Source: a virus. From it: a stretch of 64,000 bases of DNA. The translations under genes and the position numbers were made by a program. The notes below the pieces were generated by a model. The model did no database searches, was not told where the DNA came from, and was given only the letters and a program-made list of their open reading frames with translations. The stretch spans positions 8,139 through 72,138 of the IMG/VR virus record IMGVR_UViG_3300036781_000303, one strand, 5' to 3'. This document shows positions 4,642 to 62,287 of the stretch, piece after piece (the stretch's first letter is position 1; every line of letters begins with the position of its first letter).

Positions 4642-4642
4642 T

Positions 4643-34624: not shown

Positions 34625-34966
34625 CTACCGGCCAGGGGGCGAAGCGGTGGCTGGCGCAGCAGGCGTTGGCGGTGCTGGCAACGATCGAATGCCATCGAGC
34701 GCCGCCTTGCAGGTCGCCAGCCAGTGGCTGTCGTGCGCCAGGGCCGTATACATGTCGCCGTTGGCCCAGACGTTCAGAAAGCCGATGGCGCTTTCAATGG
34801 CCGGCAGCAGACTGGGCGGGATGGGCTGGTATTCGACTTTTGTCACTATCACCGGGTCGGCTGCATGCACTTGGATAGGCTTTTGCGTCGATGCCGGGGT
34901 GCAGGCTTGCAAGCAAACTAGTAGGCAGGCAATGGCCAGCCCACTTATCAACCTTCGCGTCTTCAT
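34625..34966 (-). CDS. o-spanin (Rz1-like lipoprotein)
   Basis: Signal peptide with lipobox LQAC, Pro-rich, overlaps the i-spanin 3' end. Confidence 0.8.
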   Translation of the reverse strand: MKTRRLISGLAIACLLVCLQACTPASTQKPIQVHAADPVIVTKVEYQPIPPSLLPAIESAIGFLNVWANGDMYTALAHDSHWLATCKAALDGIRSLPAPPTPAAPATASPPGR

Positions 34967-35294
34967 GCTGTAGCCTCGTTAGATCGTTGTTGAGTGCATT
35001 GTTCTTTGCGGTAGCCTCGTCAGCCGTTTGCTGGGCCTTCGCGGCAGCCTGTTGCGCTGCAGCCATCATTCCCTTTAAATCATTGAGCTGTTGTAGATCG
35101 GCGTCGTGCTGGGCTTGACGTCCTTTCTGTTCAGCCTCGGTCTGTGCCTGCTGCACCTTCGCTTCATCATTGGCATGTGCTGTCACACAGGCCAGGTCAC
35201 TGGCGCTCGATGCGCGCATACCGCCAATCCAGTAAGCCAGACCGATGGCCACAAGGGCGCAAGCGCAAATAATCAGAATCACTTTAAGAGACAT
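34794..35294 (-). CDS. i-spanin (Rz-like)
   Basis: N-terminal TM followed by a long Ala/Gln coiled coil. Confidence 0.8.
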   Translation of the reverse strand: MSLKVILIICACALVAIGLAYWIGGMRASSASDLACVTAHANDEAKVQQAQTEAEQKGRQAQHDADLQQLNDLKGMMAAAQQAAAKAQQTADEATAKNNALNNDLTRLQHEDAKVDKWAGHCLPTSLLASLHPGIDAKAYPSACSRPGDSDKSRIPAHPAQSAAGH

Positions 35295-38000: not shown

Positions 38001-39164
38001 CTAAAGTAGATCGTCAATGGCAGCGGCAGCGACATGCGCGCCGCGAAACTCGTTGGCATGCTGGGCTAGCTGTTTAGCCACAACTTGTGCTGCATTCAAA
38101 CGGTTGTCATCGTCTTCGAGCATAAATTGCATGAAGTCGCGTTGCTGCTGATGACCTATCGCTTTGCTTACGCCGAGCTGCTGCAGCAAATAGGCATTCG
38201 TGATGTTCTCGACATGATAAGGCATGCACATTTGCGGTATGCCAGCGGACAAGGCAGCTTGCGCCATGCCAGCGCTACCATGATGCAGGACGAATGACGC
38301 TTGCTGCAGTTGCTCGCTAAGGTCGAAATCCGTGATGACCTGCATATTTCCGGTGCTCTTGTAGCTACCGTTGCGCACGTAAACCTTGAACGGTATGCCA
38401 CTCAGACGAATGGCTGACACCAAATCATTAACGGCAGGGTACGCTTGCTGCAGATAGGCAAAGCCACGCAAATCGTGCACAGGTTCTTGCCAAGGCATCG
38501 ACCAGATAGGTCCTACGCCACGATGGGTCAAGCTGCGATGTATACCGTAATGATCGAGCGCCGGGTAACAGAAAGGGATTAATCTCGTCGGTTGCAGCGC
38601 CTCAGCTGTGCTTGTGAAACGGCGATCGCTTAAGGCATGAATGGTTGCAAGCAACTTGGCATCTGTGAACAAAGGCGTATTAGGCCAATGGTCGAACTGT
38701 GCGTAAGGGGCGAAGCCTTCGCGCATCTCAGGCAAGCCGAAGCTCGTACCTATACCGATGCAAGGACGATTGGCCAGCTTAGCCGCCAGCATGGCCACAG
38801 GGGCGGTCTCGGCTACAACGACATCGATGGTGCGCTCGAAAATGATATCGGCAAGACGCTGCGCCAGCGGCTGCAGTCGTTGCGAATCATCGAAAGCATG
38901 CAGACCAAGTACATCCAAAAAGCTGTTGGCGCGATAAACCTGCATGGGTTGCAGGTATTGATTCAAGCTTGGATAGTGTGGCAGTACAAAGTGCTCGACT
39001 GCCCAGCCATGCTGTTGCACCAAGTGTGATGCTGTCGTTTGGCTGGCAGAAAGCGCGAATATCGCCGTATGTCCTGCTTCGCGTAGAAGCTCAGCCACGG
39101 CCATGAGATTGCGCACGTGGCCGTGGCCGTCCCCTATTTCCCAGCAGCATAGAATGCGTGCCAT
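38001..39164 (-). CDS. GT-B fold glycosyltransferase (GT1/GT28-like)
   Basis: RILCCWEIGDGHGHV N-terminal motif and VLHHGSAG...ALSAGIPQ..MP...E...NA nucleotide-sugar motif. Confidence 0.85.
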   Translation of the reverse strand: MARILCCWEIGDGHGHVRNLMAVAELLREAGHTAIFALSASQTTASHLVQQHGWAVEHFVLPHYPSLNQYLQPMQVYRANSFLDVLGLHAFDDSQRLQPLAQRLADIIFERTIDVVVAETAPVAMLAAKLANRPCIGIGTSFGLPEMREGFAPYAQFDHWPNTPLFTDAKLLATIHALSDRRFTSTAEALQPTRLIPFCYPALDHYGIHRSLTHRGVGPIWSMPWQEPVHDLRGFAYLQQAYPAVNDLVSAIRLSGIPFKVYVRNGSYKSTGNMQVITDFDLSEQLQQASFVLHHGSAGMAQAALSAGIPQMCMPYHVENITNAYLLQQLGVSKAIGHQQQRDFMQFMLEDDDNRLNAAQVVAKQLAQHANEFRGAHVAAAAIDDLL

Positions 39165-48658: not shown

Positions 48659-49153
48659 TTATGGCGTCGGTGCCTTTGGCAATACGGTGGGCTCACCGCT
48701 GATCTGAATGCCGACCTTGCTTGTGACAAGCGCATTGATGGCAAACGTGAACGGGTAGCTGTTCATGAATCCTTGAAACGCAATCCACGAACGCGTCGAC
48801 GGCAACACGAATGCGCCCGACGAATCGACCGTAGGCTGTGGCAAGTTACCGCTGCTGTCGCGTATGCCGTCGCCAAAGCCGATAGCCCAGTTGAGCACGT
48901 CGCCTGCAACTTTCAGCTGATGCATGCGCACGTGGCTCGCGTCGGCTGGGTCGAAGTTGATGCCAAACGTCGCACTACCTGGTGTGGCCAAGCCACCCAC
49001 ATAGGTGCGTGCCAACGAATCGAGACAGGTAGTCTCTAGCTGATCGAGCGTCGTATCGATACCGTCGATGTCCGTCACGCAACCGACAACAAGAATGGTC
49101 TTGTTGGCCGGGTCAATGCAGTACATCTGCGTACCCTGTGTTTTAATTGACAT
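48659..49153 (-). CDS. major tail (tube) protein
   Basis: MSIKTQGT, ETTCLD...YVGGLATPG and F.GF...YPF motifs. Confidence 0.88.
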   Translation of the reverse strand: MSIKTQGTQMYCIDPANKTILVVGCVTDIDGIDTTLDQLETTCLDSLARTYVGGLATPGSATFGINFDPADASHVRMHQLKVAGDVLNWAIGFGDGIRDSSGNLPQPTVDSSGAFVLPSTRSWIAFQGFMNSYPFTFAINALVTSKVGIQISGEPTVLPKAPTP

Positions 49154-49164
49154 GGTCAAGCCCT

Positions 49165-49551
49165 CTAGTTGCTGTTGCGTTGAGTAAACCAATCCACTTG
49201 AAACGACACACGATACAAGCGCGTGTCAACTTCTTTGCTTTCACCAAGCCAGCCTGTGATGTAAGCAAAAATCTCGATAGCGTTGCGCACGGCTTTAACC
49301 ACAGCGCGTGCCTCGCTGAGCGTGCGTGCGTAAGCATCCATCTGGACGGTATGCGAATCTATATCAGGTACCTTATCCAAAACATTTTCTGGCAATCCGC
49401 TTACGATCTGCCAAGTGAGGTAAGGTCGTACGGTATCCTGATCGGCTTCGCCAGGAACATACACACGCAACGGATTGCTGCCCAATAGCGCAACCACGTC
49501 GGTGTTGTTCTTAAGCGTTTCGAATACAGGCGGATACACGCTAACCTCCAA
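49165..49551 (-). CDS. tail terminator (DUF3168-like)
   Basis: RVYVPGEA...PYLTWQIVSG.PEN and QMDAYA motifs. Confidence 0.85.
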   Translation of the reverse strand: MEVSVYPPVFETLKNNTDVVALLGSNPLRVYVPGEADQDTVRPYLTWQIVSGLPENVLDKVPDIDSHTVQMDAYARTLSEARAVVKAVRNAIEIFAYITGWLGESKEVDTRLYRVSFQVDWFTQRNSN

Positions 49552-50035
49552 CTATCTCGTCAATACCCTCATTGATCTGCGCCGTGATGGCGCTCGATGC
49601 GGTATCCACATTGTTCTGCAGGGCCGGACGCATGAAAGGCTGCGCTTTCATCTTGGACGTACCAAATTCCAAGAAGCGCCAATAGTAGACGTTGCCTGGG
49701 GTAACGTAGGTCTTGCCTGCTTTACGTGAACGACGATTGTTCTTAGTTTTTGCGTATTCTTTTGAAGCGCCACCGAGCACACCCACACTCAGTGCAACGC
49801 CCCCATTTTGTCGACCCAACTTTGTGTTGGTCCGGATAACGATGTCTTTCCACACCATGGCTGGTGTTTTTGGATCATCGAACTGTCGTGCTCTATCCTG
49901 TGCTGCTTTTTGTACGATCAAAGCGCCTTGTTGGAGCGCCTTGTTAAGGTACTTTTTCTCAAGTTTAGGCGCAAGCGTCTTAAGCTTGTTGATGACGCCG
50001 TCTTTGATGTTTAAGTCGAACTTATTGGCAGCCAT
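49541..50035 (-). CDS. HK97 gp10-like neck/tail-completion protein
   Basis: YYWRFLEFGTSKMKAQPFMRPAL. Confidence 0.9.
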   Translation of the reverse strand: MAANKFDLNIKDGVINKLKTLAPKLEKKYLNKALQQGALIVQKAAQDRARQFDDPKTPAMVWKDIVIRTNTKLGRQNGGVALSVGVLGGASKEYAKTKNNRRSRKAGKTYVTPGNVYYWRFLEFGTSKMKAQPFMRPALQNNVDTASSAITAQINEGIDEIVGG

Positions 50036-50721
50036 CGCTGTGCCTCCAACCATAGATCGTCGTGTGGCGCGCTATCCCATGTAGGCAGCCAGGGGCCGCC
50101 AAGCGTGAAATGCGCGATGCCTGGCTTATCCGGCTTGGGCGTTACGTTGACAAGCCAATTCCAACGCGCTGGCAGCTCACCAATCTCTGAGTCATGCAGC
50201 CAGTAGAAGCGATGCAGGTCTCGACCTGGTCGCTCGTTGATATCTTGGATAGTAAGCCTTTGATTGGCTGGATGATCGCAGTTGAAGAGCATAACACTCG
50301 ACCAGTTCTTACGAGCGTAACGCTGTTGCAGCTGGCCATCCATTTTTGTAGCGTCGTTCTCAAGCTGCTTATGCTTAACCACCATCACAGCTTTCGATTG
50401 ATCGGCATGTGCAAACAGCTTTTCGACGTCGTCAAGAAACACAACATCGCAGTCAACGAACAATGCCCAACCGCGCTGTTCAAGCATAGGTACAAAGAAG
50501 CGTGTCAGTGCAAAGTCAGTTGAGCAATAAGCATTACTTACAAGGTCATATGCACGGCCGCCACGACGATCGAGCACGCGATGGTAAAGACCGTAAGCGG
50601 CTAAACGCTCAGCATCGAGCTTGATAGGCTCAATAGCTAGGCGCGCTTGCGCCTTTAACGATTTAACAGCAACGTCGTATGCCGCTTGTTCTCGTGCGTC
50701 GTGGCCGATATAGACTCTCAT
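50011..50721 (-). CDS. GT-A fold glycosyltransferase (GT8-like)
   Basis: RVYIGHD, STDF..TRF, FVDCD (DxD), RKNWSSVMLFN, WNWL and HFTLGGPW motifs. Confidence 0.88.
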   Translation of the reverse strand: MRVYIGHDAREQAAYDVAVKSLKAQARLAIEPIKLDAERLAAYGLYHRVLDRRGGRAYDLVSNAYCSTDFALTRFFVPMLEQRGWALFVDCDVVFLDDVEKLFAHADQSKAVMVVKHKQLENDATKMDGQLQQRYARKNWSSVMLFNCDHPANQRLTIQDINERPGRDLHRFYWLHDSEIGELPARWNWLVNVTPKPDKPGIAHFTLGGPWLPTWDSAPHDDLWLEAQRWLPISST

Positions 50722-51254
50722 GGCTTTCTGGCCACAATGCGAAAATCGCGATCGAAGCGGCCGACCTTATGCCATTCCGGTATTTGCTCTTCAATGTCCA
50801 CAAACCCATGAGCTCTGAGAAAAGGCGCGAGTGTGTCGTAAGTCCAGCCCCAGCGATGACACATGTAGGGGTCGCGCAAGGTAGGATCGCCGTAAAGACC
50901 CCACATGCCCAACTGGTCTGGCTCTTTCTTACCCTGCTTGCCTTCAAGGATGTTAGCGCAGAACTTGAATAGGTCTGGCATTTCTAGAACAAGTCGACCT
51001 TTTTTGGCCAACAATCGAAACCACTCGTTGATGACGTCGTCGCATTCCCAACGGTAAAGATGTTCCCACAGATGAATCGCCATGATTTCACTGGCGCAGC
51101 CATTGGGCAAAGCGATTGAACGCACGTCGCTAAGCATATCGGGTGCGCGTTGTGCTTTTGGGTTAGCAGCGATGTCGATGTTGAACCAACCATCAAGCAC
51201 GTGGCGACCGCAACCTAGGTTCAGGCGCAGATTTGTTGCTGTAGAAAGGTCCAT
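50718..51254 (-). CDS. class I SAM-dependent methyltransferase
   Basis: LNLGCG...GWFNID, HLWEH and RLL..GRL...MPD motifs. Confidence 0.88.
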   Translation of the reverse strand: MDLSTATNLRLNLGCGRHVLDGWFNIDIAANPKAQRAPDMLSDVRSIALPNGCASEIMAIHLWEHLYRWECDDVINEWFRLLAKKGRLVLEMPDLFKFCANILEGKQGKKEPDQLGMWGLYGDPTLRDPYMCHRWGWTYDTLAPFLRAHGFVDIEEQIPEWHKVGRFDRDFRIVARKP

Positions 51255-52012
51255 GCGTGCTTGGCCTCTGTAGGTTTCCACTGCCACCAAGCGAGTCGCC
51301 GTAAGAATGCCAAGCGAGCTGCATGAGTGGGGTTATAGGGGTTTTTGATGCTGTTGTTGTACAAGCCTGCTGCAGCGCCGTCCTTGCACACTACAGGTAT
51401 GCCGGCCATGCAAGCGTCGATAGCTACGTTGCTGTGATGACACACAACCAGGCTGGCGCCGCGCAAGACATCTTCGATGGAACCTTCGCTATGATCACAA
51501 AACACGAAAGCTTCGGGGCGCTTTGGTCGATACACAATGCGCTTATCAGGGTAGGCATTACGCAATGCGTAGTAGGTTTGTTCTTCCCATTCGAGTCCGC
51601 GCAGGCCCAGCGCTTCGCGACTCTTTTTGCCAAAGCCTACCAAGATGATAGGTCCGTTGGCGTCGTAGTCATCGCGCAGTGCGATCGAGCAACGATCGAA
51701 ACGTAACGCCGGCATGTCAGGTAACAAGCAAGGCGGGTGATCGCGATCGATACTCAAGCGAAAATGGCAGTCACGTATCCAATAACCTAAGTCCCAGGCT
51801 ACAACGTGCCCGCCGTCGCGAATATGCCGTAGCATCGCTGGACGTCGTACAGGGTGGCCAAGTCCCCATGTCATGACGATTGGGCTGCTGCCTGTGTAAG
51901 TCGGCGATGTATGAACCGTGACACCGGCCGCTGCAGCACTATCGAGCATGGCGGCAAGCATGACGCGCTGACGCTGGCGCAAGTCCATAGGCATGACGAT
52001 TTCACAATCCAT
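51221..52012 (-). CDS. capsule-biosynthesis-like (KpsS/KpsC-type) glycosyltransferase
   Basis: DLGY, IVYRPK, VVCHHSNVAIDACMAGIPV and LAWWQW motifs. Confidence 0.7.
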   Translation of the reverse strand: MDCEIVMPMDLRQRQRVMLAAMLDSAAAAGVTVHTSPTYTGSSPIVMTWGLGHPVRRPAMLRHIRDGGHVVAWDLGYWIRDCHFRLSIDRDHPPCLLPDMPALRFDRCSIALRDDYDANGPIILVGFGKKSREALGLRGLEWEEQTYYALRNAYPDKRIVYRPKRPEAFVFCDHSEGSIEDVLRGASLVVCHHSNVAIDACMAGIPVVCKDGAAAGLYNNSIKNPYNPTHAARLAFLRRLAWWQWKPTEAKHAWTFLQQQICA

Positions 52013-52868
52013 GTAAAAACCCTCGCAAGTCCTTGGCAGCCTGATCGACTGAATATGTCTTCGTCACAGCTTTAGCCTGCATGGTTTGACGAAATTGCGC
52101 AGATGCGGCTACAAGTAGCGCGTCATGCACGTCATCCTTTGTTCGTACCCACAATTCGGCGCCGGCCGCTGTTTCTTTGTAACCGCATTCTGGCTGGCCG
52201 ATAAAGGTAGCGCCTATAGCATGTGCGTTGGCCAATTTTACGTTTGACTTCCAATGACTCTGGACGTAGCCGCAATAAGGCTCGTCGCGCATAGCAACGA
52301 CAGCGTCAGCCATGCACAGACTACGTGGGTTAACTTCAAAAACGATATCGCGTGCTTTACACACGTCACGTAGAACATTTGACCATTTGCCTAAATAAGC
52401 TGCAGCGCCTTCGTAGGCAAGTGTACGCATCGTCGGTGCGACTGAAATAGGTTGTAACCCTGGTCGATGGTGGTGGTAAAGCACAAAGCCAGGACGACCG
52501 TCGCTACAGTCAGACATCATGCACTGGTTTGGCCAAACGACGGCAGTAGGTTGTAACGCTGCGATCTGTGCTTTGACCCAAGCGATTGCTTCATTGCGTG
52601 ACCACACAGTACATGCAGGCTGCGGGTAAAAGTCTACGACATCGAACACCCACGTCTTGCGTTGTTGACGCAATTGCTGCAGCAACAACGGCGGCACTTT
52701 TTTGACGGCTATAACGATGTCGGCATCTGAAATAGCACGCTGTGACAGCGGGCTAAGTGGTGTGCTATTGCCTAAGGGCACTGCATTACTACCCATGGCA
52801 CGCGCCAGTTGCTCACCGCGAATCGTCCAAGACCCAGCGCCACCACGACCTGTAAAAAGAATGTTCAT
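52002..52868 (-). CDS. GT-B fold glycosyltransferase-like protein
   Basis: GSWTIRG, VFDVVD, LAYEG and KSNVKLANAHAIG (GT4-like KL..A..G) motifs. Confidence 0.7.
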   Translation of the reverse strand: MNILFTGRGGAGSWTIRGEQLARAMGSNAVPLGNSTPLSPLSQRAISDADIVIAVKKVPPLLLQQLRQQRKTWVFDVVDFYPQPACTVWSRNEAIAWVKAQIAALQPTAVVWPNQCMMSDCSDGRPGFVLYHHHRPGLQPISVAPTMRTLAYEGAAAYLGKWSNVLRDVCKARDIVFEVNPRSLCMADAVVAMRDEPYCGYVQSHWKSNVKLANAHAIGATFIGQPECGYKETAAGAELWVRTKDDVHDALLVAASAQFRQTMQAKAVTKTYSVDQAAKDLRGFLHGL

Positions 52869-53611
52869 AGTAAAATGTCGAAGGCGAAGCCACTTTCGAT
52901 TTCATTCAATCGCCACATCGCCCACGCCATACGACGGAACATCTGCAAGCGCGTGCGCTCGCAACGATTAGGCACGTCGCCCATAGTTGCCGATGCATCT
53001 TTTGCAATCCAATTGGGCATATCACTATAGACAGGAATGCCCCAAGCGAGCGCCTTGATGGCTGCACCGCTGCCCCAGGTGTACACAGCGTAAGCGTTCG
53101 CTAAATCATGCTGCAGTGGCGTGCATTTATTTGTACCGGGGTGACGGCGTACACGCGCGTCTTTGTGGCTTGCAGCGTTCGCTGTCCATGACAACGGCAT
53201 CGCTACGCCTGGTTCACCAATGCCACGCTGTGGCAAGACTATGAGCTCACGGCCATAGTCGCGAAACGGCAAAAGCTCTACGTTTAAATTGTCCCAACGC
53301 GCGGCACCGTAATTGTTCCAAATGCCAGCACCATTGTGATGACTACGACTTATCGCATACCAGCGATCACCCACGAAGTCGTTGCCCATGTACCCGTTCT
53401 CAGCGACGAGAACAGTAGCGCCTACACGTTCGAACGCTTTCGCGGCGTCGTCTGCAACGCCAAAACGGTTCCATATGATAAGCAAATCGGTCGGCTTGGG
53501 TGATTGCGTCATCGAAAAGCACGGCTCGAAACCCAGACGCTTGACGCCTACAGCAAAAGCATCACGACGATAGTGAGGCTGTTCACGAAGCCCAATGTAA
53601 GCGCGGCTCAT
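52865..53611 (-). CDS. capsule-biosynthesis-like (KpsS/KpsC-type) glycosyltransferase, paralogue of 51221..52012
   Basis: ENGY, VRRHP, TWGSGAAIKALAWGIPV and MAWAMW motifs. Confidence 0.7.
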   Translation of the reverse strand: MSRAYIGLREQPHYRRDAFAVGVKRLGFEPCFSMTQSPKPTDLLIIWNRFGVADDAAKAFERVGATVLVAENGYMGNDFVGDRWYAISRSHHNGAGIWNNYGAARWDNLNVELLPFRDYGRELIVLPQRGIGEPGVAMPLSWTANAASHKDARVRRHPGTNKCTPLQHDLANAYAVYTWGSGAAIKALAWGIPVYSDMPNWIAKDASATMGDVPNRCERTRLQMFRRMAWAMWRLNEIESGFAFDILL

Positions 53612-54117
53612 GACACCCCACTCGCAAAGCACGTCAATGCGCTACCGGGCGTCATATTGATGACGTCGACACCGGTATGGCGCCACATACGGAATTCATC
53701 GCGCATACCCTTGAAGCGGTTGGCGTCAGGGTTCTTTAAAGGGGCTTTGTGCAAACCGAAAAAATGATCACCATGCAAATCGAAGCCGTGCAGATAGATG
53801 CGCTTTGCGCCCATCCACTGAGCAACCATGCAAGCAAGCAGGCCGCTATTACAACCTGTACCGAAATGCTCATTGACCATGGCGGATGGCTCAAAACGTT
53901 CAACACCTTCAATGCGATTGGTCGAAAACTTGCGGCCGACGAACCTAAACGCGTCTGGGTGAGCTGTCCACCATGCAATATCCTGACTGACAAGAACATC
54001 GCCCCATGGCGCCAGTGTGTAGCAGTTGCTCACTACTGCGACGTGCTGGCCACGCAAACCATCTGCCACCGCTTGCGACATGCTTGGCCCACTGGCTATG
54101 ACATGCCACTCAGCCAT
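53608..54117 (-). CDS. Maf/DUF115/GT29-like (sialyltransferase-like Rossmann) protein
   Basis: VIASGPS, NSGLLA..VA..MGAKRIYLHGFDL and INMTPGSALTCF motifs. Confidence 0.7.
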   Translation of the reverse strand: MAEWHVIASGPSMSQAVADGLRGQHVAVVSNCYTLAPWGDVLVSQDIAWWTAHPDAFRFVGRKFSTNRIEGVERFEPSAMVNEHFGTGCNSGLLACMVAQWMGAKRIYLHGFDLHGDHFFGLHKAPLKNPDANRFKGMRDEFRMWRHTGVDVINMTPGSALTCFASGVS

Positions 54118-54481
54118 CGTAGATACCTGCCTCAACAGGCAGCGACAGCCATTCGAGCCCTGTATCAGGATCACGAATAGGATGACCCGCGATCTGGTAA
54201 TACGTGATTGTCCCGTGGTTGTCGTCATGCACGCAGCGCATCTTGGCTGTGACGCCTACGCGATAGCGCACCACGATAACGCCTGCAACGGTGCTCTGCA
54301 GTGCCGATGATTCAATAAATTCGCGTGCAGACAGCATACGTATTTCAGCCGGCACGTCCGACCATCGGGGTGTCCAACCTGTAATGACCATTTCGCCGGA
54401 CAATGCATCTTGCACAGCGATAGGCGCCTCAATATTGATGCGATGCTTGAGGCGACCTGCATAGAAAGTGGTCGTAGCCAT
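54110..54481 (-). CDS. head closure protein (SPP1 gp16-like)
   Basis: AGRLKHRINI, SAREF and RYR.GVTAKMR motifs. Confidence 0.9.
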   Translation of the reverse strand: MATTTFYAGRLKHRINIEAPIAVQDALSGEMVITGWTPRWSDVPAEIRMLSAREFIESSALQSTVAGVIVVRYRVGVTAKMRCVHDDNHGTITYYQIAGHPIRDPDTGLEWLSLPVEAGIYDG

Positions 54482-54849
54482 TAGCCTATTGTCGGGTCAC
54501 GCAGCATGTAGATAGGTGCCGTCACAAACCACGGCAGATAACCTTGCTGCCAGTTGTTGATTTCGAAACCGTCACGATCGCGCATCCACAAGCCTACAAG
54601 AAGCGCTGTCGACAGCATGACCTCAGGCGGTACACCGGGACCATCTTTGCGTGTCTGCGGTACAACGTCGCCATGGCTGTCCACAAGTACGTCGCCATGG
54701 CTATCTTGGTAGAGCGTCGGGCTCTTGAGATAGTTGAGCAACGCTGACGTCGCTGCTTGAATCACAAGCTGCAAATCGGCGTCGTCGGCTGTTCCGCTAT
54801 CAAGCTTCAAGCGCGCTTTCGCTTGTGCGAGCGACAAAAACATGCGCAT
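54481..54849 (-). CDS. head-tail connector (HK97 gp6-like)
   Basis: SLAQAKARLKLD...DDADL...I.AA and LRDP motifs. Confidence 0.88.
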   Translation of the reverse strand: MRMFLSLAQAKARLKLDSGTADDADLQLVIQAATSALLNYLKSPTLYQDSHGDVLVDSHGDVVPQTRKDGPGVPPEVMLSTALLVGLWMRDRDGFEINNWQQGYLPWFVTAPIYMLRDPTIG

Positions 54850-54850
54850 A

Positions 54851-56287
54851 TCAGCGGCCTCCCTTGGCGACACTGTCCTTGCCGTCCTTGCCATCCTGAC
54901 CGCGCTTTACGATCAACTGCCAGTCTGTGTTGGTCCCTGGTTGTGCGTTGGTGTCCTTTTTGGCGAGCCACGCGCTACCGCCCCAGGTCACTGCGTCGCC
55001 AACTTCATACAAGGCATCTTTCTTGAAGATGCCGCGATGAATCGGGTGACTAAGCTTTAATGAAAACTCTTTCGATTGATCGCCGCGCACGAACATGAAT
55101 TTGATAGTGCGTTCGCCGTCGAAGTTGACACTGAGGTCATCGAAGCCCAGACCGTCTGCACCGTCCTTGCCATTGGCAGGCTGCACAAACTTATCAAGCG
55201 TGCGATGCAGGACGTCCATGGCACGACGTTCAAAGTCGAGTGCCCATTGGGCATGCATGCTGGCCAATTGGATAGCCACATCGTCGAGTGTGACGCTCGT
55301 GCCGTCCTTGCCATCTCTGCCTGGCTCGCCGTTGCGGCCGGCTGGCGCAGGGTTGGCGTCCATAAATTCTTTGGTGATCTGCCGCACAACCTCAGGGTCA
55401 GCGTCCTTACCGGGTGCCGGTGGGTGCTCGCTCAACCAGGCGCTCACAGCAGACGCCAATAGGGCTGGCTGCGCCGCCAGGGCCGCCGCGACCGTGTCGG
55501 CAGTAGGTGGTGGCGCATCAGCGCCGTCCTGGCCAGGCGCGCCGTCCTGACCGGCTGGTACCGGGTTATCGGCCATATGCCTGGCGATCGCGCCTGCCAA
55601 CATATCGGGGTCAGCCCGCAATGCCTCTAGAACGACGTCAGCGGTCGGCGCGGGGGCGTCTTGACCAGGTGCACCCGGTGCGCCGTCTTCGCCGCGCTGA
55701 CCGTCCTGGCCAGGGGCTGGCGGGTTCTCTTCGAAATAGTTTTGAACGTTCTCGACGAGTAGCTGTTTAAAGCCCTCGTGACCCATCAGAGCATCGCCTA
55801 TATCGACAGGGTCAGGCGATACGCCATCTTGACCTGGTGCACCGTCTTTGCCTGCCGCTGGCGGGTTGCTCGTGATGAACGTTTGTATGTGCTCGCCTAC
55901 CAGACTCTTGAAAGCAGCATCAGCCACAAGTATGTGGCTGACATCTTCGGGCGAAGGCGACGTGCCATCGACACCGTCGTTGCCTGGTGGGCCAGCAGGT
56001 ATAGGGTTAGCGTTGAGATGACTTGCTACCGCTGCCTGCAGCAAATCATTCGAGTTAGCCAGAACGACATGCAATTGCTCGTTGGTCGCATCGGCGCCGT
56101 CTTTGCCCGGTTCGCCATCTTTACCTGGCGCACCATCCTTGCCGTCTTGCGGCATAGGACGATCTTCAAGCGCCTTGACACGGTTGGCGAGTGTTGCAAT
56201 TTGTCCCATGACTTCATCGATCGCCTTGGCGATCAAGCCACGGACAATCGTGCCTATCTGCTTGCCAAATTCAGTGGGCGTCGTCAT
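54851..56287 (-). CDS. collagen-like repeat virion protein downstream of the portal
   Basis: Interrupted Gly-X-Y blocks (GKDG, GQDG); C-terminal HRGIF...Y..GDAVTWGGS.W...W.L.VKRG domain. Confidence 0.8.
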   Translation of the reverse strand: MTTPTEFGKQIGTIVRGLIAKAIDEVMGQIATLANRVKALEDRPMPQDGKDGAPGKDGEPGKDGADATNEQLHVVLANSNDLLQAAVASHLNANPIPAGPPGNDGVDGTSPSPEDVSHILVADAAFKSLVGEHIQTFITSNPPAAGKDGAPGQDGVSPDPVDIGDALMGHEGFKQLLVENVQNYFEENPPAPGQDGQRGEDGAPGAPGQDAPAPTADVVLEALRADPDMLAGAIARHMADNPVPAGQDGAPGQDGADAPPPTADTVAAALAAQPALLASAVSAWLSEHPPAPGKDADPEVVRQITKEFMDANPAPAGRNGEPGRDGKDGTSVTLDDVAIQLASMHAQWALDFERRAMDVLHRTLDKFVQPANGKDGADGLGFDDLSVNFDGERTIKFMFVRGDQSKEFSLKLSHPIHRGIFKKDALYEVGDAVTWGGSAWLAKKDTNAQPGTNTDWQLIVKRGQDGKDGKDSVAKGGR

Positions 56288-57692
56288 GGGTCAATTCCAA
56301 TAGCAAAGCTTCAAAAGCACGTTTATTCCAGTCGGCAATATCTTTTGCAGCCTGGTCGGTTTCAGGCGATGACGGTGCGGGCAGCGCAGGCGTCGTTTCA
56401 GTAGCTGGGTCAGGCACGCGCGTTGGTGTGGTGATCACAAAGGGGTTGTCGCTTGCATCGCGTTTGGCGAGCGCCTCAAGACTGTAGTTCTGCTGTTGCG
56501 CCATAGGCGCATCGCCACCAGGTACAGGCTTCAAGCCCAGTTTTTTGCGACCTTCATTAGGCGCGACCAGACTATTCTTGATGCCCTCACCTTGAACCTG
56601 CATCGTGCTGAGTGGGTCCATGCGCAGCAAGCCGTCAAGATCGAGCTCGATGCCGATGTCATCGCTTAGCGACAAGCCTTCGTCCATCGCAAGCTCGATG
56701 CTTTCGATATGAATCTGCAGACACGTGTTGTAGTAGTCCTGTTGCATAGCGCCGTAGTTGCTATAGGTCGGCGCGCTTCCCACACCGATCTTGTAAGCAG
56801 GCATATGAAAAGCGCTGCAGACTTTTTCGTCTGAATAACGAAGCTGATCGATCACTTGCGCGTCGACAGCTGTCATCACCATTTGCTCGAATTTCAGACC
56901 GTCGCCAAGAACAGCAACGTTGCCTACATTGTGGCCACTGAAATTCTTGCGCCAGTCCTCTCTAAGGCGCGTCGCCGTGTCGTTCGTGATGCTGCCCGGC
57001 GCCGTAAGAATGCCGCCAGGGATAGCGGCATTATCAAAAAAGCGTGTGTAGTTCTTTAGGATGTTCAACGCCTGAATCGCGGGTAGACCACACGCGAAGA
57101 TCGGCGAAAGACCCATAAGCGGGTGAAACAAACAGTTCCATCTGTCGTGAATGATTTCGCTCGCCGGCACTAGCACAGTCTGTGTACCGATGCCTGCCAG
57201 ATTGTCAGTCGACAGCTGATAGAAAACGCTACCGTCATCGGCAACCATAGGAAACACGCGCGTGGGATCGAGAATGTACTGCGCGACGACTACATTGCGG
57301 TTGTCGCGCTCTTTCAATACGTAGGTATTGCCGCGCGACAGCTTGCTTATCATCCATTGCTCTAAAAACTGGATGCGATTCTGAAACCGGTTAGGTTTGG
57401 TCAGTACAGGGGTGTATGCCGCATTGGCGTAAGGTTCCCAAAAACCCTGTGCATTGCGCTTGGTTAGCTTCCAATTTAGCTTTGCGATGTCTGACGCAAT
57501 GGTCGTAATGCAAGCGAATACACTGGTATTGGCCAACACGGTGTCGTGCTTAATTTCGATGTTGCGCTGCCAAGCGCCTGGGAAAGCTTCTCGAATGATG
57601 CCCCACCAGCTCGACCCAGGAACACCCTGCAGCGACTTTTCAGCCTTAGTCTTGATGACCTTGTTCGTAGACAGGCTAAGAGAAAATCGCAT
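56271..57692 (-). CDS. HK97-family portal protein
   Basis: VFACITTIASDIAKL, PNRFQ, GNTY, GLSPI and PNEGR motifs. Confidence 0.93.
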   Translation of the reverse strand: MRFSLSLSTNKVIKTKAEKSLQGVPGSSWWGIIREAFPGAWQRNIEIKHDTVLANTSVFACITTIASDIAKLNWKLTKRNAQGFWEPYANAAYTPVLTKPNRFQNRIQFLEQWMISKLSRGNTYVLKERDNRNVVVAQYILDPTRVFPMVADDGSVFYQLSTDNLAGIGTQTVLVPASEIIHDRWNCLFHPLMGLSPIFACGLPAIQALNILKNYTRFFDNAAIPGGILTAPGSITNDTATRLREDWRKNFSGHNVGNVAVLGDGLKFEQMVMTAVDAQVIDQLRYSDEKVCSAFHMPAYKIGVGSAPTYSNYGAMQQDYYNTCLQIHIESIELAMDEGLSLSDDIGIELDLDGLLRMDPLSTMQVQGEGIKNSLVAPNEGRKKLGLKPVPGGDAPMAQQQNYSLEALAKRDASDNPFVITTPTRVPDPATETTPALPAPSSPETDQAAKDIADWNKRAFEALLLELTHDDAH

Positions 57693-58100: not shown

Positions 58101-60455
58101 TTAGCCGCCCCAGTTGACGCCTTCAAGCAGAGCAACAGCCGACGTGCGGCGGCGTGCCCAGTTAAGGGTACGCTCGCAGCGGAAAGCGACGCTGTTGGTC
58201 TGGAACATGCTCACCAGCTGTGCCGGCGTTGGCGTGGTGCTGTTGGCGGTCGGCGCGCCGTCCATCTGCAACGACGCTTCGGTGGACATCGCCAGGTCGA
58301 AACCGCCGTCATCGCCGTAGTAGATATCGCTGGCGTTGATCAGTGCCACGATGTGGCCAGCCGACGTGGTAGGCACGTACTGGCTGGTAATCACAGGCAG
58401 ACCTTGGAAGATACCGCCGTTCATGGTGATACCGGGGAACTCGGGCTGACCCAGCGGGTTCAGCATCAGCGACAACGCCAGGGCAATCACGTTATCCATC
58501 AGCCACACACCCGACGTCGGTGCGTTGTTCGCAGCGATGAACTGCTGGAATAGACGCTTGATATCGGTACGCACGTTGTCGGCCGTGTTGCCCGAGCTCG
58601 TGATAGGCGCGACGCCGTTGGTGATCGATGCCGGCGAGATGCCTGCCGAAGCGGTCTTGTTCGGGTCGACAAAGTCGACGTCCATACGCTCTTGCAGGGC
58701 AGCCAGCAGCGCATCGCGCACCAACACATCGGCAGACGGCGAGCTGTCGCGAATGACTTCTTGCGTCAGCACAGCGATGTTGGCGACCTTCAACGGGTCC
58801 AGCGTGGTGCGGTTGAAGTCGAACTTCGTCAGCGGCTTGGACTGACCTTCACCGACCCAGAAGCCGGCACCGCCGCTGGTCTGGCCAATCAAGGCCACAC
58901 GGAATGGGACACGACGCAGGCCCGGAATACCGCCCTGGCCGAACTTGCCCAGAATGGTCAGAGGGCGCAGAAACTCGACGAAGTCGGCATACACGCTCGA
59001 CTCTTCGCCCACCAGTGCGCCAGCCCAGGTCGAGTTACTCGTGTTACCCGCTGCGACAGCCGCCTTGAGCACAGGAATAACGCGCTTATCGATCCGCTTA
59101 CCCGATTCGGCATGGCCGATGGCCATCTGCAGGGCTTCGTAGTGTGCGCCCTTGGCCAGACCCAGGAAGCGAACCACCTGTGCGAGTGCCAGACCGTCTT
59201 TGGTCTCGACTTCGGCACGCACGACAGCCGGCGTTGCGGCGAGCGGTGTACGTGCATTCGCGGCACCAGCGCTGCCACCTTCGGCACCTGGTACTTGCTG
59301 CAGCGTGGTGAGATTGGCCTTTTCCAGATTGGTCAAGCGCACCAAATGCTGGTCGATGGCCTTTACTTCGCCTTCGAGACCATCGTATTCGACTTGCTCT
59401 TCCGCATTCAGGGTCAGACCTTCCTTGCTGGCCTTTTCCATGATTTCGACCATGCGCGCAGCCTTCGCTTGGCGCGTTGCTTCGAAACTCTTGATTTGAT
59501 CTTTGATGTTCATTGCACTGCCCTCCGGGGGCTTCGGTGTGATTGTCGTCTTGGTGCCCGAAGCGCCGGGCGAGGGTGTGCTACGTACGACCACATTCGT
59601 TTTGCCTGACGCGGCGTGATAGCGGTCGAAAGCTTTGACGGTTTGAATCGTTGAACTGGCATTTGCAGGAATGGTCACAGCGGATAGTTCGAGCCATTCC
59701 CACACGTTGAATTTGTAACCCCACGTGCCGTCGATCTGCGCGGACTCGATAGGGTTGAACCCGATGGACAAGCCGCGCACCAGCTTGTTGCTGATCGCGT
59801 CCCAGGCGAAATCGACCATATCCTTGAGCTGGCCGGCAGCGGCGATCGCTGCAATTTTGCATGTGACCGCGATGCCCTTGGCGGTAACCGTTGCATCCGT
59901 AACCCAACCGATAGGCTGGCAGCTGTCGTGTTGCCACAATAGCGGGATAGGCAATTTGAACTTCGCGCCCTCAGGCACCACGATATCGCCCATGCGATCG
60001 GTTTCAGGCGTGGTAGCAATGCCTTCGAAGATACGATCGCCGTTGGGGTCGGTACTTACTGCCTTGATTTCGAAAACAGCGTAGGCCCGTTTCATGGGAC
60101 CGGCTGACTTGTTGGCGACCTTGGCATCGATGCTGTCGATCAACGCGCCTGCGGCGTCATAGATGCTCTGCAGGTCCTGTTGCCCCGCGCGCTGTCGGAT
60201 AGCCGTTAAAGCGCTGCGATAGACCTTGCCGCCTTTACCGAAAGGATAGCCGTAGCGATCTTTTGTCTGAGAATCCGCACTCGTATCTTCGCCAAGAAAC
60301 CACCTGGCATAGTTGGTCCAGTCATCGCCGGCATCGCCCAAGAGCGCATTGCCGTCGTCTGCAGTAAAGGACCAATCGGATGTCGCGTCGTACGCGCCCT
60401 GGGATATAAGACTGGCTGCGTGCGCGCGGCCAGTGGAATTCAATTGCATCGACAT
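58101..60455 (-). CDS. fused N-terminal domain, HK97 prohead protease and major capsid protein
   Basis: Protease motifs FEGIAT...DRMGD, LLWQHD, GLSIGF, ELSAVTIPAN; capsid motifs WVGEG..KP and SMFQTNSVAFRCER. Confidence 0.93.
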   Translation of the reverse strand: MSMQLNSTGRAHAASLISQGAYDATSDWSFTADDGNALLGDAGDDWTNYARWFLGEDTSADSQTKDRYGYPFGKGGKVYRSALTAIRQRAGQQDLQSIYDAAGALIDSIDAKVANKSAGPMKRAYAVFEIKAVSTDPNGDRIFEGIATTPETDRMGDIVVPEGAKFKLPIPLLWQHDSCQPIGWVTDATVTAKGIAVTCKIAAIAAAGQLKDMVDFAWDAISNKLVRGLSIGFNPIESAQIDGTWGYKFNVWEWLELSAVTIPANASSTIQTVKAFDRYHAASGKTNVVVRSTPSPGASGTKTTITPKPPEGSAMNIKDQIKSFEATRQAKAARMVEIMEKASKEGLTLNAEEQVEYDGLEGEVKAIDQHLVRLTNLEKANLTTLQQVPGAEGGSAGAANARTPLAATPAVVRAEVETKDGLALAQVVRFLGLAKGAHYEALQMAIGHAESGKRIDKRVIPVLKAAVAAGNTSNSTWAGALVGEESSVYADFVEFLRPLTILGKFGQGGIPGLRRVPFRVALIGQTSGGAGFWVGEGQSKPLTKFDFNRTTLDPLKVANIAVLTQEVIRDSSPSADVLVRDALLAALQERMDVDFVDPNKTASAGISPASITNGVAPITSSGNTADNVRTDIKRLFQQFIAANNAPTSGVWLMDNVIALALSLMLNPLGQPEFPGITMNGGIFQGLPVITSQYVPTTSAGHIVALINASDIYYGDDGGFDLAMSTEASLQMDGAPTANSTTPTPAQLVSMFQTNSVAFRCERTLNWARRRTSAVALLEGVNWGG

Positions 60456-60466
60456 GACGGTAACCC

Positions 60467-62287
60467 CTACAGAAAGATGGCCTGATACTGTTTGGGCGCG
60501 TCTCCGGGGGCGAGTGATATACCTACTGCCATGATTAACGCAACTGCGCCATCGATTTTGTTTTCGGGCTTTTCCTTCCTTGGATACACATTCTCTTTGA
60601 CGTCCGTGTGGCAAACCACGTTACTTATCATCCATGCAAGTATTGGATCGCCATTGTGATGTATCCGCCTCTGTAAAACTAAACCCTCCAACTCTTTCAT
60701 TGGAAGGCTCATGTTTTGAATAGTTTGACGATACTCAAACACCGGTAGCTTTGCAACTTCCAACCGTTGCATCAAATAGCTTGCTTGCCACGGGTCAAAA
60801 CCCGCGTGTGTGATCTTAAAAACCCCGGCGTCGCGCTTTACGTGCTCTTCAACGGTGGCGAAATCCGTTACCTCGCCTGGTGTCACGGTAAGCAGCGCTC
60901 TTTCCGCCCAACCGCCATATTGGCTGTTTCGGCCGTCTTCGATCGCGGCTTTAGGCAAATAGTAATCCGCAAAAACGTAGTAGTGATCGGTTGTCTCCAA
61001 TGCACCGCGACTGTTGTAAGCCGTCACCGAGCGTTTAAACAGCTTGACGATCGGTAGCATATCCGTCTTGGTGGCCAAGTCGCCCACCAGCACGCAGTCC
61101 TGTCCTTTGAAATTATCCAATGAAAGTTCTGTGTCTGCGCATTGATCCCAAGCAGCCATGGACATCCAAGGTGCATCCGCATTAACCCAGACGTTCAGAT
61201 GCTTGGTCAGAAAGTTGGCTAATGCGCTGGGTGTTTGCTGAGCCTTGTGCGCCTTGCGCGCTAAATCATCCGGTTCTACCGATATACCGTAATTAGGATT
61301 AGCTTTCTGCCATATCTCAGGTCGGAAGTAATCCTTCTTCTTGATATCTTCTTTATCTAAGGTATAGATAATTCCGAAATAGGTTTCGTCGTCGAATATT
61401 TGCTGCAGCAGTTTGGTGACGTAATTGCGCTGTTCGTAGCAAATGCCCGCGCGATTGCTACCCGCTGTGGTGATTGCCCACAAAAGTGATTGCTCACGTG
61501 CGCCTGTTGCTGTTTCTAAGACGTCCCAAATACCGCGATCTTTGTGGCCATGCAGTTCGTCGATCAGACCGCAATGCACGTTGAGACCGTCTAGATTGCC
61601 TTGGCGATCGCGCGACAATGGCTTAAACACACTGTTGTTATTGCGCTTGTAGATCGTATGCGCTGACGAGCCGACGCCAAGGTAACGTCGAAGATCAGGG
61701 CAATGCGTGACCATCTGCTGTGCATCATTCCAGATGATCTTGGCTTGTTCGCGAGTTGTGGCGGCCGAATAGACTTCTGCGCCTAGTTCGCCATCGGCCG
61801 CCAGGCAGAACAAACCCACTGGTGCTGTCATCGTTGACTTGCCGTTTTTACGCGGCACTTCGATGTAGACCGTGCGAAAGCGGCGCTTCTGGTATTTATC
61901 CAGCCAGCCAAAGATGGTCGTTATGATGAAGCATTGCCAGTCCGACAAGATCAGCATTTTGCCCGCGAACTTCGAACCTTTGACCTGCGGCATGGCTTCC
62001 ATGAAAGCCACCACCGCGTTTGCGTGGTCGATGTCGAAGTGCCATGGCCAATCAGGCTGCCCCTCGTGTGTCAGGTCGCGTGCCTGGCGCGCTACAGCCA
62101 GCTTGACCCATTCGCAGGCCAAGATACTGCCATCGGCCACCTTGGCCATGTAGCGCTGCGCACGCTCAACGCCAGACAGCGGTTCGTCCGGCGTGATCGG
62201 CGGCGGCTTTCTCGGCTTGCGGGGTTTCTTTTCAGCGACCCTTGTTGGCGAAGTGGCCGAACGGGTTGCCCGTTTTTTCGTCGTCAC
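60467..62287 (-). CDS. terL: terminase large subunit
   Basis: VPRKNGKS, IDELH, ITTAG, FDPW and KIDGAVA motifs. Confidence 0.96.
   Translation of the reverse strand: MTTKKRATRSATSPTRVAEKKPRKPRKPPPITPDEPLSGVERAQRYMAKVADGSILACEWVKLAVARQARDLTHEGQPDWPWHFDIDHANAVVAFMEAMPQVKGSKFAGKMLILSDWQCFIITTIFGWLDKYQKRRFRTVYIEVPRKNGKSTMTAPVGLFCLAADGELGAEVYSAATTREQAKIIWNDAQQMVTHCPDLRRYLGVGSSAHTIYKRNNNSVFKPLSRDRQGNLDGLNVHCGLIDELHGHKDRGIWDVLETATGAREQSLLWAITTAGSNRAGICYEQRNYVTKLLQQIFDDETYFGIIYTLDKEDIKKKDYFRPEIWQKANPNYGISVEPDDLARKAHKAQQTPSALANFLTKHLNVWVNADAPWMSMAAWDQCADTELSLDNFKGQDCVLVGDLATKTDMLPIVKLFKRSVTAYNSRGALETTDHYYVFADYYLPKAAIEDGRNSQYGGWAERALLTVTPGEVTDFATVEEHVKRDAGVFKITHAGFDPWQASYLMQRLEVAKLPVFEYRQTIQNMSLPMKELEGLVLQRRIHHNGDPILAWMISNVVCHTDVKENVYPRKEKPENKIDGAVALIMAVGISLAPGDAPKQYQAIFL

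Follow-up and report, generated by a model that had tools for sequence, protein, structure and literature searches.

We analysed a 64,000-nucleotide stretch of viral DNA (the window), the last 64 kb of the 72,138-bp IMG/VR record IMGVR_UViG_3300036781_000303, which CheckV rates as 100% complete, and we focused on six overlapping genes, G1 to G6 (50011-54117, minus strand), lying between the head-closure gene Hc1 and the neck gene Ne1 of a tailed phage. [quoted passage not shown] The case for a virion target is indirect. It is carried by the embedding of the reading frames in a late operon, by the association of the set with structural genes in two unrelated phage lineages and by the in-frame fusion of G1 to fibre-like proteins, and also by the deposited 'structural protein' label of the G1 homologue of phage PAJU2, the lack of export or membrane components and the independence of the set from lysogeny and DNA-modification genes.

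The six reading frames share one strand: G1 at 53608-54117 (169 amino acids, aa), G2 at 52865-53611 (248 aa from its ATG, or 255 aa from an upstream GTG at 53632), G3 at 52002-52868 (288 aa), G4 at 51221-52012 (263 aa), G5 at 50718-51254 (178 aa from its ATG, or 190 aa from a TTG at 51290) and G6 at 50011-50721 (236 aa), all on the minus strand. Overlaps are found at every junction. The stop codon of Hc1 (54110-54481, minus strand; Pfam Phage_HCP, E 6e-18; phrog_25) overlaps the start of G1 by 8 nt, the overlaps within the cassette include 4 nt for G1/G2, 4 nt for G2/G3, 11 nt for G3/G4 and 4 nt for G5/G6, and the end of G6 overlaps the start of Ne1 (Neck1, an HK97-gp10_like/tail-completion protein; 49541-50053, minus strand; Pfam E 1e-7; phrog_5, E 3e-22) by 43 nt, provided that Ne1 begins with the ATG at 50053. 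The GC content of the six genes (0.52-0.55) matches that of their flanks. Between 47.5 and 58.5 kb, neither promoter-like sites (2 found, 7.5 expected) nor terminator-like sites (12 found, 11.6 expected) are enriched, and on the minus strand a single block of morphogenesis and lysis genes runs from about 63 kb to 34.8 kb. Transmembrane-like segments are absent from all six proteins (highest 19-residue Kyte-Doolittle mean, 1.34), and Pfam scans of 101 open reading frames (ORFs) revealed no Gtr-type, flippase or polymerase family. An Rz-like i-spanin (34794-35294, minus strand; phrog_89, E 1e-5) overlaps an embedded, out-of-frame lipoprotein ORF with a lipobox-like signal (34625-34966), and a diderm host is thereby confirmed. 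In all these points our analysis agrees with the original prediction, made from the DNA letters alone, which had placed six overlapping, co-oriented ORFs at 50011-54117 between Hc1 and an HK97 gp10-like gene, had noted the lack of transmembrane segments and of flippase, GtrA/B and polymerase genes, and had deduced a diderm host from spanins; its further statement that Hc1 and the gp10-like gene are normally adjacent is fair, as judged from the neck blocks of two relatives (L119 and L166) that are free of glycosyltransferases.

Describing the cassette as inserted, as that prediction did, is misleading if it implies a peculiarity of this locus, for the set is an old module conserved over a large phage group. 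A scan of IMG/VR with a G3 alignment returned 152 pattern matches, 137 of which encode G3 relatives, and the best 80 loci were analysed. All six genes are found on one strand in 58 of these 80 loci; in a further 20 the cassette is partial with a contig end within 1.5 kb, and in the remaining two a same-strand G6 is missing. The gene order is G1-G6 in 48 of the complete loci and G2-G6-G1 in ten, and the cassette proteins of the relatives are only 27-69% identical to those of the window. Throughout the 80 loci, the cassette lies in the head/neck region at a position that shifts: among the 58 complete loci, the nearest recognised flanks are Hc1 and Ne1 in 25, the gene of a collagen-like protein and Hc1 in six, and the major capsid protein gene and Hc1 in three, with the other 24 showing other flank pairs, an unrecognised flank or a contig edge. 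Because the cassette always stays near virion genes yet occupies shifting places among them, selection for co-expression with these genes is suggested, rather than a frozen accident. Relatives of G4 are also present at eight loci of named prokaryote genomes, including the chromosome of Dokdonella sp. MW10, a Variovorax contig and gammaproteobacterial metagenome-assembled genomes.

Five larger records, namely four relatives and the window's own genome, were searched whole. A tyrosine integrase was detected in two of the five, and neither in the window genome nor in a complete relative with terminal repeats. QueC was found in none of the cassette-bearing relatives (0/5), and thymidylate-synthase homologues (PF00303) in none of the five records, the window genome included. 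The cassette is thus retained whether or not a phage has an obvious lysogeny gene, and it is independent of DNA-modification genes. A CMP-sugar synthetase was likewise found in none of the five records, and therefore the donors must come from the host.

The core of the cassette recurs in a lineage unrelated to that of the window. In the giant Caulobacter siphophage CcrColossus, it directly follows the tail-protein genes and precedes the lysis genes, and four consecutive genes, gp126 (G1; profile E 4e-31), gp127 (G2; E 9e-64), gp128 (G4-like; E 9e-16) and gp129 (G6; E 9e-55), stand in the same order as in the cassette, followed by gp130 and gp131, which are by annotation only a methyltransferase and a GT9 glycosyltransferase. 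Relatives of G2 occur in 15 records of CcrColossus-type Caulobacter phages, and relatives of G6 in 19 cultured-phage records, mostly of the same phages. Searches with tblastn gave no match to G3 or G4 among 50,697 phage records, and a nucleotide search with positions 49000-55000 gave none among cultured phages.

The cassette member most widely shared is G1, with G1-like genes in 65 cultured-phage records, among them those of the Pseudomonas phages D3 (orf7), PAJU2 and PMG1, of P1 (pmgO/pmgP region) and P7, and of giant Caulobacter and Brevundimonas phages. PAJU2 resembles the window over its head and tail genes, with identities of 57% for the capsid fusion, 46% for the portal, 52% for the tail tube and about 40% each for the adaptor Ad1 and for Hc1; the C-terminus of its collagen-like protein, Ad1 and Hc1 are together 34-40% identical to their counterparts in the window. 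Between its Hc1 and Neck1 genes, PAJU2 carries a G1-like gene, a gene for an unassigned 275-aa protein and a Methyltransf_23 gene, and in D3 the same kind of set (G1-like, unknown, methyltransferase) is divided in two. No relation of PAJU2 ORF011 and ORF012 to the G2, G3, G6 or G5 profiles was detected, in a comparison of single sequences with profiles that has weak power.

By sequence, G1 reads as the MptE-like (DUF115) core domain of a sialyl/ulosonic-acid transferase of the GT42/Maf/WaaZ-like type, with scores that lie below the curated cut-offs. Its best family match is phrog_4603, 'alpha-2,3-sialyltransferase' (E 3.6e-27). The match of G1 itself to Pfam MptE-like reaches 18.2 bits, below the curated cut-off of 34.6, and 21 of 35 members of the G1 family match the same model at E ≤ 0.01, the best at 1.1e-7. 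The G1 family profile aligns with chains of Cst-II (GT42) at E ~0.01, and the alignment spans the S-G and G-x-D motifs. Residues G10, S12, S91, G92, G111 and D113 are invariant or nearly so in the family, and their motifs align with motifs of Cst-II which we take to be those involved in nucleotide-sugar binding. Among the ESM-Atlas neighbours of the G1 model are DUF115 clusters and one cluster in which 58% of the members are MptE-like and 43% WaaZ_KDO_III (TM score 0.82), a result that we use as a lead only.

The paralogy of G2 and G4 extends over almost the whole of both proteins, as indicated by an hhalign comparison of the two families (probability 98.6%, E 1.2e-15, 223 columns), whereas BLASTP detects their kinship at the C-terminus only. 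Neither protein has a Pfam, NCBIfam or PHROG match, and Pfam Capsule_synth (PF05159) finds nothing in either even at E ≤ 10. The nearest named ESM cluster of G2 carries Capsule_synth (KpsS/C) in 17% of its members (score 0.94), again a lead only, and G4 has at least 346 homologues in a collection of 5.8 billion proteins, none of them named and none of those listed with a Pfam domain. AlphaFold2 models were computed for G3 and G4, and the fold of G2 is assigned by homology to G4. The model of G4, built on a deep alignment, has a predicted local distance difference test score (pLDDT) of 94.8, and in a VIA-align comparison its top 15 rows are all WbbB (Z 13.0), KpsC (12.2) or KrkA (10.0), at root-mean-square deviations (rmsd) of 4-5 Å and identities of 10-14%, whereas generic GT-B enzymes reach Z ≤ 9.6.

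The motifs of the two proteins agree with this placement in part. Retaining beta-Kdo transferases carry, according to the accessible part of the source, a QxxxD motif with the Asp nucleophile and a (K/R)xHP motif for CMP binding, both in the C-terminal domain (PMC12887879). Among 44 G2 sequences, R162, H164, P165 and G166 are invariant and form an R-x-H-P motif in the C-terminal domain, akin to the CMP-binding (K/R)xHP of sialyl and Kdo transferases. Q135, about 30 residues before it, is nearly invariant and opens the string Q-R-G-I-G, in which the Asp at +4 is missing and after which the next residue varies. At the columns aligned to these positions, G4 has G-F-G-K-K and R-P-K-R-P, that is, neither QxxxD nor HP. 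This comparison with the solved enzymes rests on fold position and spacing, not on a residue-level structural alignment. Judged from the model, G2 and G4 together read as a new family of Kdo-transferase-like architecture that is not GT99, GT107 or GT140, and the conserved motif of G2 suggests that at least one of the two probably uses a CMP-sugar.

The remaining three proteins are easier to place. By sequence, G3 matches no Pfam, NCBIfam or PHROG family, nor a Glycos_transf_1-type GT4 model (E ≤ 10 for Pfam, E ≤ 1 for NCBIfam), and its 736 homologues in the 5.8-billion-protein collection are all unnamed, those listed being at most a 'hypothetical protein'. Its AlphaFold2 model (pLDDT 95.9) identifies it as a compact GT4-type GT-B enzyme, with the predicted two-Rossmann fold extending over the whole length: VIA-align matches it over 265-273 of 288 residues to Gtf3/GtfC, PimA, BshA and other GT4-type enzymes, all tied at Z 20.9-20.4 and rmsd 2.9-3.8 Å. 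A kinship of G3 with G4 was considered and rejected, since G3 is unrelated to the G4 profile. Single-sequence and family-profile searches of G2, G3, G4 and G6 against PDB sequences gave nothing significant. G5 is, on its sequence profile, a class I S-adenosylmethionine (SAM)-dependent methyltransferase; it scores below the cut-off for Pfam Methyltransf_11 (E 0.01) and far below that for the NCBIfam oligosaccharide methyltransferase MftM (E 9e-4), its family profile matches the solved methyltransferases 1ve3 (E 1.3e-5) and 2yqz (3.4e-5), and the glycine-rich motif I is visible in its sequence. G6 is a predicted GT8-type (GT-A, DxD) glycosyltransferase, with a borderline match to Pfam Glyco_transf_8 (PF01501; 24.8 bits against a cut-off of 24.3) that is shared by 7 of 32 family members, a match to phrog_28018 (E 1e-46), and a DxD motif whose D90 and D92 are invariant in 32 sequences. 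The protein calls of the original prediction held up well. A Maf/GT29-like protein is broadly right for G1, in the form of a GT42/Maf/MptE-like assignment by phrog_4603, the family profile and the structural neighbours; the paralogy of two KpsS/C-like proteins is borne out by the hhalign result and by the nearest folds of the G4 model; and the calls of a GT-B protein (G3), a SAM methyltransferase (G5) and a GT8-like DxD enzyme (G6) are upheld by the alignment of the model to GT4-type enzymes, by the two solved methyltransferases, and by the PF01501 score together with the invariant aspartates, respectively.

A link between the cassette and virion-type fibres is provided by fusions of G1. In four loci (L032, L034, L035 and L084), a G1 domain 45-50% identical to that of the window is fused in frame to a larger protein, in which the N-terminal G1 domain is followed by a Pro/Glu-rich linker, a collagen-like G-x-y stretch, PKD and sometimes a concanavalin-type lectin domain. 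Pfam applied to three of the four loci finds PKD in 3/3, collagen in 2/3 and the lectin in 1/3. Six longer homologues of G1 (574-646 aa) show a comparable composition, with PKD in 6/6, collagen in 4/6 and a lectin domain in 1/6; the ten fusion proteins are the sum of these six and the four loci, and one of them, P0246 (598 aa), which agrees with the L084 fusion in protein length and in the size of its contig (8,094 bp), is possibly identical to it. A collagen stalk with a PKD or lectin head is typical of phage fibres and other extracellular proteins. Since a fibre-type fusion made in the infected cytoplasm can leave it only in the particle, G1 is tied physically to a virion-type fibre, and in these fusions it may serve either as an enzyme held next to its substrate or as a domain that docks on the particle.

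Within the window itself, one protein is a candidate for the role of acceptor or partner, namely the collagen-like repeat protein encoded after the portal gene (54851-56287, minus strand; 478 aa), which matches phrog_1289, phrog_2271, phrog_16748 and phrog_5073 as well as Scl2/SclB-type collagen repeats (E 2e-9) and has a C-terminal domain common to phage tail-fibre proteins. In addition to the C-terminal domain, the protein has about six repeats, in each of which a short run of G-x-y is combined with a linker rich in Pro and a segment that resembles a helix. The C-terminal half of PHROG 2271, a 'portal protein' family of 859 positions, matches the collagen-like protein, which may accordingly be portal-fused in some phages. 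As an obligate partner of the cassette, the collagen-like protein was rejected: it occurs in cassette-free relatives and is missing beside the G1-like gene of D3.

To see how the neck region varies, we compared the 80 closest relatives of the portal protein (46-60% identity), of which 15 with long flanks were annotated (125 proteins). Most of the 80 keep the order capsid fusion, portal, collagen-like protein; a G1 match is present in 22 and the full six-gene set in none. No glycosyltransferase lies close to the neck genes in seven of the 15 annotated relatives. In two cassette-free relatives, L119 and L166, Ad1, Hc1, Ne1 and Tc1 are all called in a neck block without a glycosyltransferase; in L166, an HNH gene (12772-13338) follows Hc1 and Tc1 precedes Ne1, and in a third cassette-free relative, L167, two anti-repressor genes occupy the neck position (13456-15413). 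The other eight annotated relatives carry a protein of PHROG 4603, which stands by itself (L132) or is joined by varying partners, among them methyltransferases of the FkbM and other types, a hexapeptide acyltransferase, a GT9-like protein, a P-loop protein that is kinase-like, and unknowns; GT9 appears in the variant cassette of L130 as it does in CcrColossus. The locus behaves like a glycan-diversity island with G1 as the common denominator, which would suit G1 as the enzyme in contact with the acceptor.

From these observations we infer the donors, the order of action, the acceptor and the benefit to the phage. The six genes would form a single late-expressed, cytoplasmic glycan-assembly module within the virion-morphogenesis programme, in which G1 most likely begins the glycan or attaches an ulosonic acid taken from a CMP-sugar of the host. 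Extension of the chain, with CMP-, NDP- and UDP-sugars of the host, may be the task of G2, G4, G3 and G6, and methylation that of G5. Among CMP-activated ulosonic acids, only CMP-Kdo is to be expected throughout the hosts of the phage group. The acceptor would be a phage-encoded particle protein, possibly the collagen-like fibre, the capsid or a tail protein. The virion glycan pathway of the original prediction thus survives as a soluble cytoplasmic pathway, which fits the data and gains from the G1-fibre fusions, the 'structural protein' label of the PAJU2 homologue and the recurrence in CcrColossus, and lacks the acceptor that it called for; the masking from defences or antibodies that it proposed as a benefit is speculative.

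Several points weigh against glycosylation of the virion. The acceptor remains inferred: comparisons of the capsid, tail-tube and collagen-like proteins gave none, no Ser/Thr-rich tail that tracks the cassette was found on the capsid or tail-tube C-termini, the collagen-like protein is also present in the seven annotated relatives (7/15) without a glycosyltransferase, and the G1-like gene of phage D3 has no adjoining collagen-like gene. The neck site is a hot spot for unrelated accessory genes, such as the HNH gene of L166 and the anti-repressors of L167, and therefore position alone is weak evidence. With QxxxD missing from G2 and G4, and HP from G4 as well, the donor and mechanism suggested by these sequences are uncertain. 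If the 'structural protein' label of the PAJU2 homologue holds, the role of G1 might be that of a structural domain and not an enzymatic one. The set of WaaZ-like, KpsC-like, GT8 and GT4-like proteins, with GT9 in variants, resembles the machinery of lipopolysaccharide (LPS)-core assembly, whose enzymes equally lack transmembrane segments. We know of no protein-linked Kdo. The characterised Kdo transferases, as far as the accessible parts of three sources describe them, act in LPS, O-antigen or capsule synthesis (PMC10148158, PMC9587256, PMC12887879).

These last points lead to the main alternative, a serious one that we nonetheless consider rather unlikely: remodelling of the host envelope, in which the enzymes would sit at the cytoplasmic face of the inner membrane and act on lipid A-core or another lipid-linked glycan, and the resulting altered LPS core or Kdo-glycolipid would stop the infected cell and its debris from adsorbing this or other phages. 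WaaZ, the GT8 Waa enzymes, the GT9 heptosyltransferases and KpsS/KpsC act in this way, and the set matches the enzymes of the LPS core and capsule linker through the WaaZ_KDO_III cluster near G1, the fold of G4 nearest to KpsC, WbbB and KrkA, the Capsule_synth cluster of G2, the GT8 assignment of G6 and the GT9 genes of the variants. Enzymes of the LPS-core type are soluble or peripheral, so the lack of transmembrane segments fits, and the step of the original prediction from missing transmembrane segments to a virion acceptor does not follow, as such enzymes also do without them on lipid-linked acceptors. Proteobacteria share a conserved inner core of Kdo2-lipid A, and one cassette could therefore serve many hosts. 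The tail of the phage, furthermore, has fibre genes of an LPS/polysaccharide type. However, a cassette that lies within the late structural operon and lacks its own promoter is poorly timed for exclusion and offers no prophage expression, and it is kept without a detected tyrosine integrase in the window genome and in the complete relative. The fusion of G1 to PKD-bearing, mostly collagen-like fibre domains is hard to square with an enzyme of the inner-membrane face, two unrelated lineages have the cassette placed after structural genes, and no lipid-binding or export component is seen.

The fusions also bear on a second and more doubtful alternative, in which G1 is mainly a structural, virion-attached domain for docking or glycan binding, derived from a glycosyltransferase fold, and the remaining five proteins would modify either G1 itself or a fibre nearby, or else have some different late function, such that the cassette would not be one linear six-step pathway. 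The PAJU2 homologue of G1 is deposited as a 'structural protein', like the capsid and tail-tube proteins of that phage, with the basis of the label unconfirmed; in the fibre-like fusions, the domain at the N-terminal, particle-proximal end is G1; and G1-like genes stand alone or with unrelated partners in the eight annotated portal relatives (8/15), D3, PAJU2 and P1. Nevertheless, the conserved residues of G1 fall on predicted nucleotide-sugar-binding motifs aligned with Cst-II (G-P-S close to the N-terminus, S-G, G-x-D), which points to a working active site, and a catalytic protein can also ride in particles. Hypermodification of DNA, in which the glycosyltransferases would decorate a modified base before packaging, is very improbable: glycosylation of DNA by several phage enzymes late in infection has precedent, in the accessible part of the source (PMC13326640), and this genome has a 7-deazaguanine-type set (QueC, QueD and QueE-like genes), but a thymidylate-synthase-type hydroxylase occurs in 0/5 records including this genome, the absence of QueC from the cassette-bearing relatives (0/5) means that DNA-modification genes and the cassette do not travel together, the place of the cassette is among genes for structure and not for replication, and G1 forms fusions with fibre domains.

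The late block that contains the cassette starts with the small and large terminase genes, followed by a prohead-protease/major-capsid fusion (58101-60614, minus strand; 837 aa), a small ORF, the portal gene (56271-57692, minus strand), the collagen-like gene and the adaptor Ad1 upstream of Hc1. Beyond Neck1 come the tail terminator, a lambda-like tail tube, chaperones, the tape measure, and RcGTA-like distal tail and fibre genes, and the block ends with an SLT-type lysin, holin-like proteins and the Rz-like spanin with its embedded lipoprotein ORF. Encoding the capsid fusion before the portal is an unusual head-gene order, which is also found in PAJU2 ('prohead protease fused capsid protein') and in most of the portal relatives. 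Many cassette-bearing relatives, though not the window, share a capsid ending in F-P-[TS]-[AS]-C, which looks like a lineage marker. A capsid end W-I-D-G-[FM]-P-x-x-C, with a terminal Cys, is likewise absent from the window capsid and recurs in L003, L008, L011, L017, L024, L032, L033, L040, L048, L049, L051, L053, L069 and L082.

Elsewhere in the window, a gene at 38001-39164 (minus strand) encodes a soluble GT1-family (EryCIII/MGT-like) glycosyltransferase (Pfam EryCIII-like_C, E 4e-9, above the cut-off; NCBIfam MJ1255/MGT subfamilies, below their cut-offs), for which a pattern scan of viral contigs found no relatives; it is flanked by the tail host-specificity gene and by a fibre gene with DUF2793, and was counted as a seventh soluble glycosyltransferase. 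The replication arm carries, on the plus strand, a radical-SAM QueE-like gene (14736-15491), QueC (15501-16334; E 4e-45) and a PTPS/QueD-like gene (16321-16797), whose sequences suggest a 7-deazaguanine-type DNA modification. A 99-aa protein (2838-3137, plus strand) has an Acb2/Tad1 hairpin domain (E 9e-16) and is a candidate anti-CBASS/Thoeris nucleotide sponge; its gene adjoins a tRNA-Gln (3169-3242). A NADAR-domain protein (20027-20455, plus strand; E 2e-24), of a family which we take to be linked to the reversal of ADP-ribosylation, may be a counter-defence gene. The window also encodes a family A DNA polymerase (25267-27303). In the part of the record that lies upstream of the window (L004), a protein of 925 aa that carries the helix-bundle domain of NrS-1 polymerase (2407-5184, minus strand) is probably a primase-polymerase, and an HNH/P-loop kinase fusion lies at 62-787.

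Our literature searches on virion glycosylation and phage glycosyltransferases returned no account of this cassette or of the function of PHROG 4603, and no virion glycosylation in phages of Gram-negative hosts. If the six genes do glycosylate the particle, virion glycosylation would extend beyond the actinobacteriophages, as a modular trait widespread among phages of Alpha-, Beta- and Gammaproteobacteria and built from a constant G1-like starter enzyme and a variable extender set, with a bearing on adsorption, on recognition by host defences and antibodies, and on engineered phages. Three large unannotated families (G2, G3 and G4, with hundreds of members) and the long-unexplained genes of the 'pmg'/orf7 type would acquire a function. 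Should the Kdo assignment hold as well, this would be the first virion glycosylation of a Gram-negative phage and the first protein-linked Kdo-type glycan known to us; should the target instead be the LPS core, the cassette would represent a new kind of late-expressed receptor-remodelling module. We put forward only tentatively, and regard as doubtful, the generalisation that phages of Proteobacteria commonly place on a particle protein a short, methyl-capped glycan based on Kdo or another host CMP-ulosonic acid and started by the G1 family (PHROG 4603). Cultured carriers exist (CcrColossus-type Caulobacter phages, and PAJU2 and D3 for a minimal version), which makes the question directly testable.

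Among known systems, the serotype-converting Gtr cassettes resemble the present one in being phage-encoded sugar-transfer genes. They consist of integral membrane proteins, are expressed from the prophage and lie outside structural operons, whereas the cassette has neither transmembrane segments nor a GtrA/GtrB family member, lies inside the late operon and is kept without a detected tyrosine integrase. The DNA-glycosylating phage systems differ in that no thymidylate-synthase homologue is encoded with the cassette (0/5 records). In the chlorovirus PBCV-1, A064R combines two glycosyltransferase domains with a methyltransferase, and a capsid N-glycan has been demonstrated experimentally. The likeness to this virus lies in virus-encoded cytoplasmic glycosyltransferases and a methyltransferase that make a methylated virion glycan without host membrane machinery; PBCV-1, however, infects a eukaryotic alga, and its enzymes are unrelated and its glycan N-linked. 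Maf enzymes attach CMP-activated nonulosonic acids to flagellin in the cytoplasm. Cst-II, Maf and WaaZ are approached by G1 through its MptE-like domain, its S-G and G-x-D motifs and the WaaZ/DUF115 clusters among its neighbours, yet G1 with its 169 aa is only the core domain, scores below the cut-offs and is fibre-fused in some phages.

KpsC (GT107), WbbB (GT99) and KrkA (GT140) are the nearest solved folds to G4 and have the same compact modified GT-B architecture; in the accessible parts of the sources, they serve capsule or O-antigen synthesis, unlike the virion role proposed for the cassette (PMC10148158, PMC9587256, PMC12887879). The invariant R-x-H-P of G2 resembles the (K/R)xHP of these enzymes and the G2/G4 pair recalls the two modules of KpsC, whereas the lack of QxxxD in G2 (Q-R-G-I-G) and G4 (G-F-G-K-K) and the R-P in place of H-P in G4 set the pair apart. 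A close functional parallel concerns the mycobacteriophages, for which virion glycosylation by phage enzymes is established; Che8, Corndog and Myrna, as reported in the accessible parts of two sources, carry glycans on capsid and tail-tube subunits, and the proposal is that soluble glycosyltransferases encoded by the phage act in the cytoplasm on proteins of its own particle (PMC12619734, PMC12363180). Sequence similarity to these phages was not detected (tblastn with G3 and G4 against the 50,697 phage records), nor was a Ser/Thr-rich capsid or tail-tube C-terminus. The hosts of the cassette-bearing phages are Proteobacteria and not Actinobacteria, and the cassette differs from the mycobacteriophage systems further in its make-up, with five glycosyltransferase-like proteins, three of which are of a predicted CMP-ulosonic-acid-transferase type.

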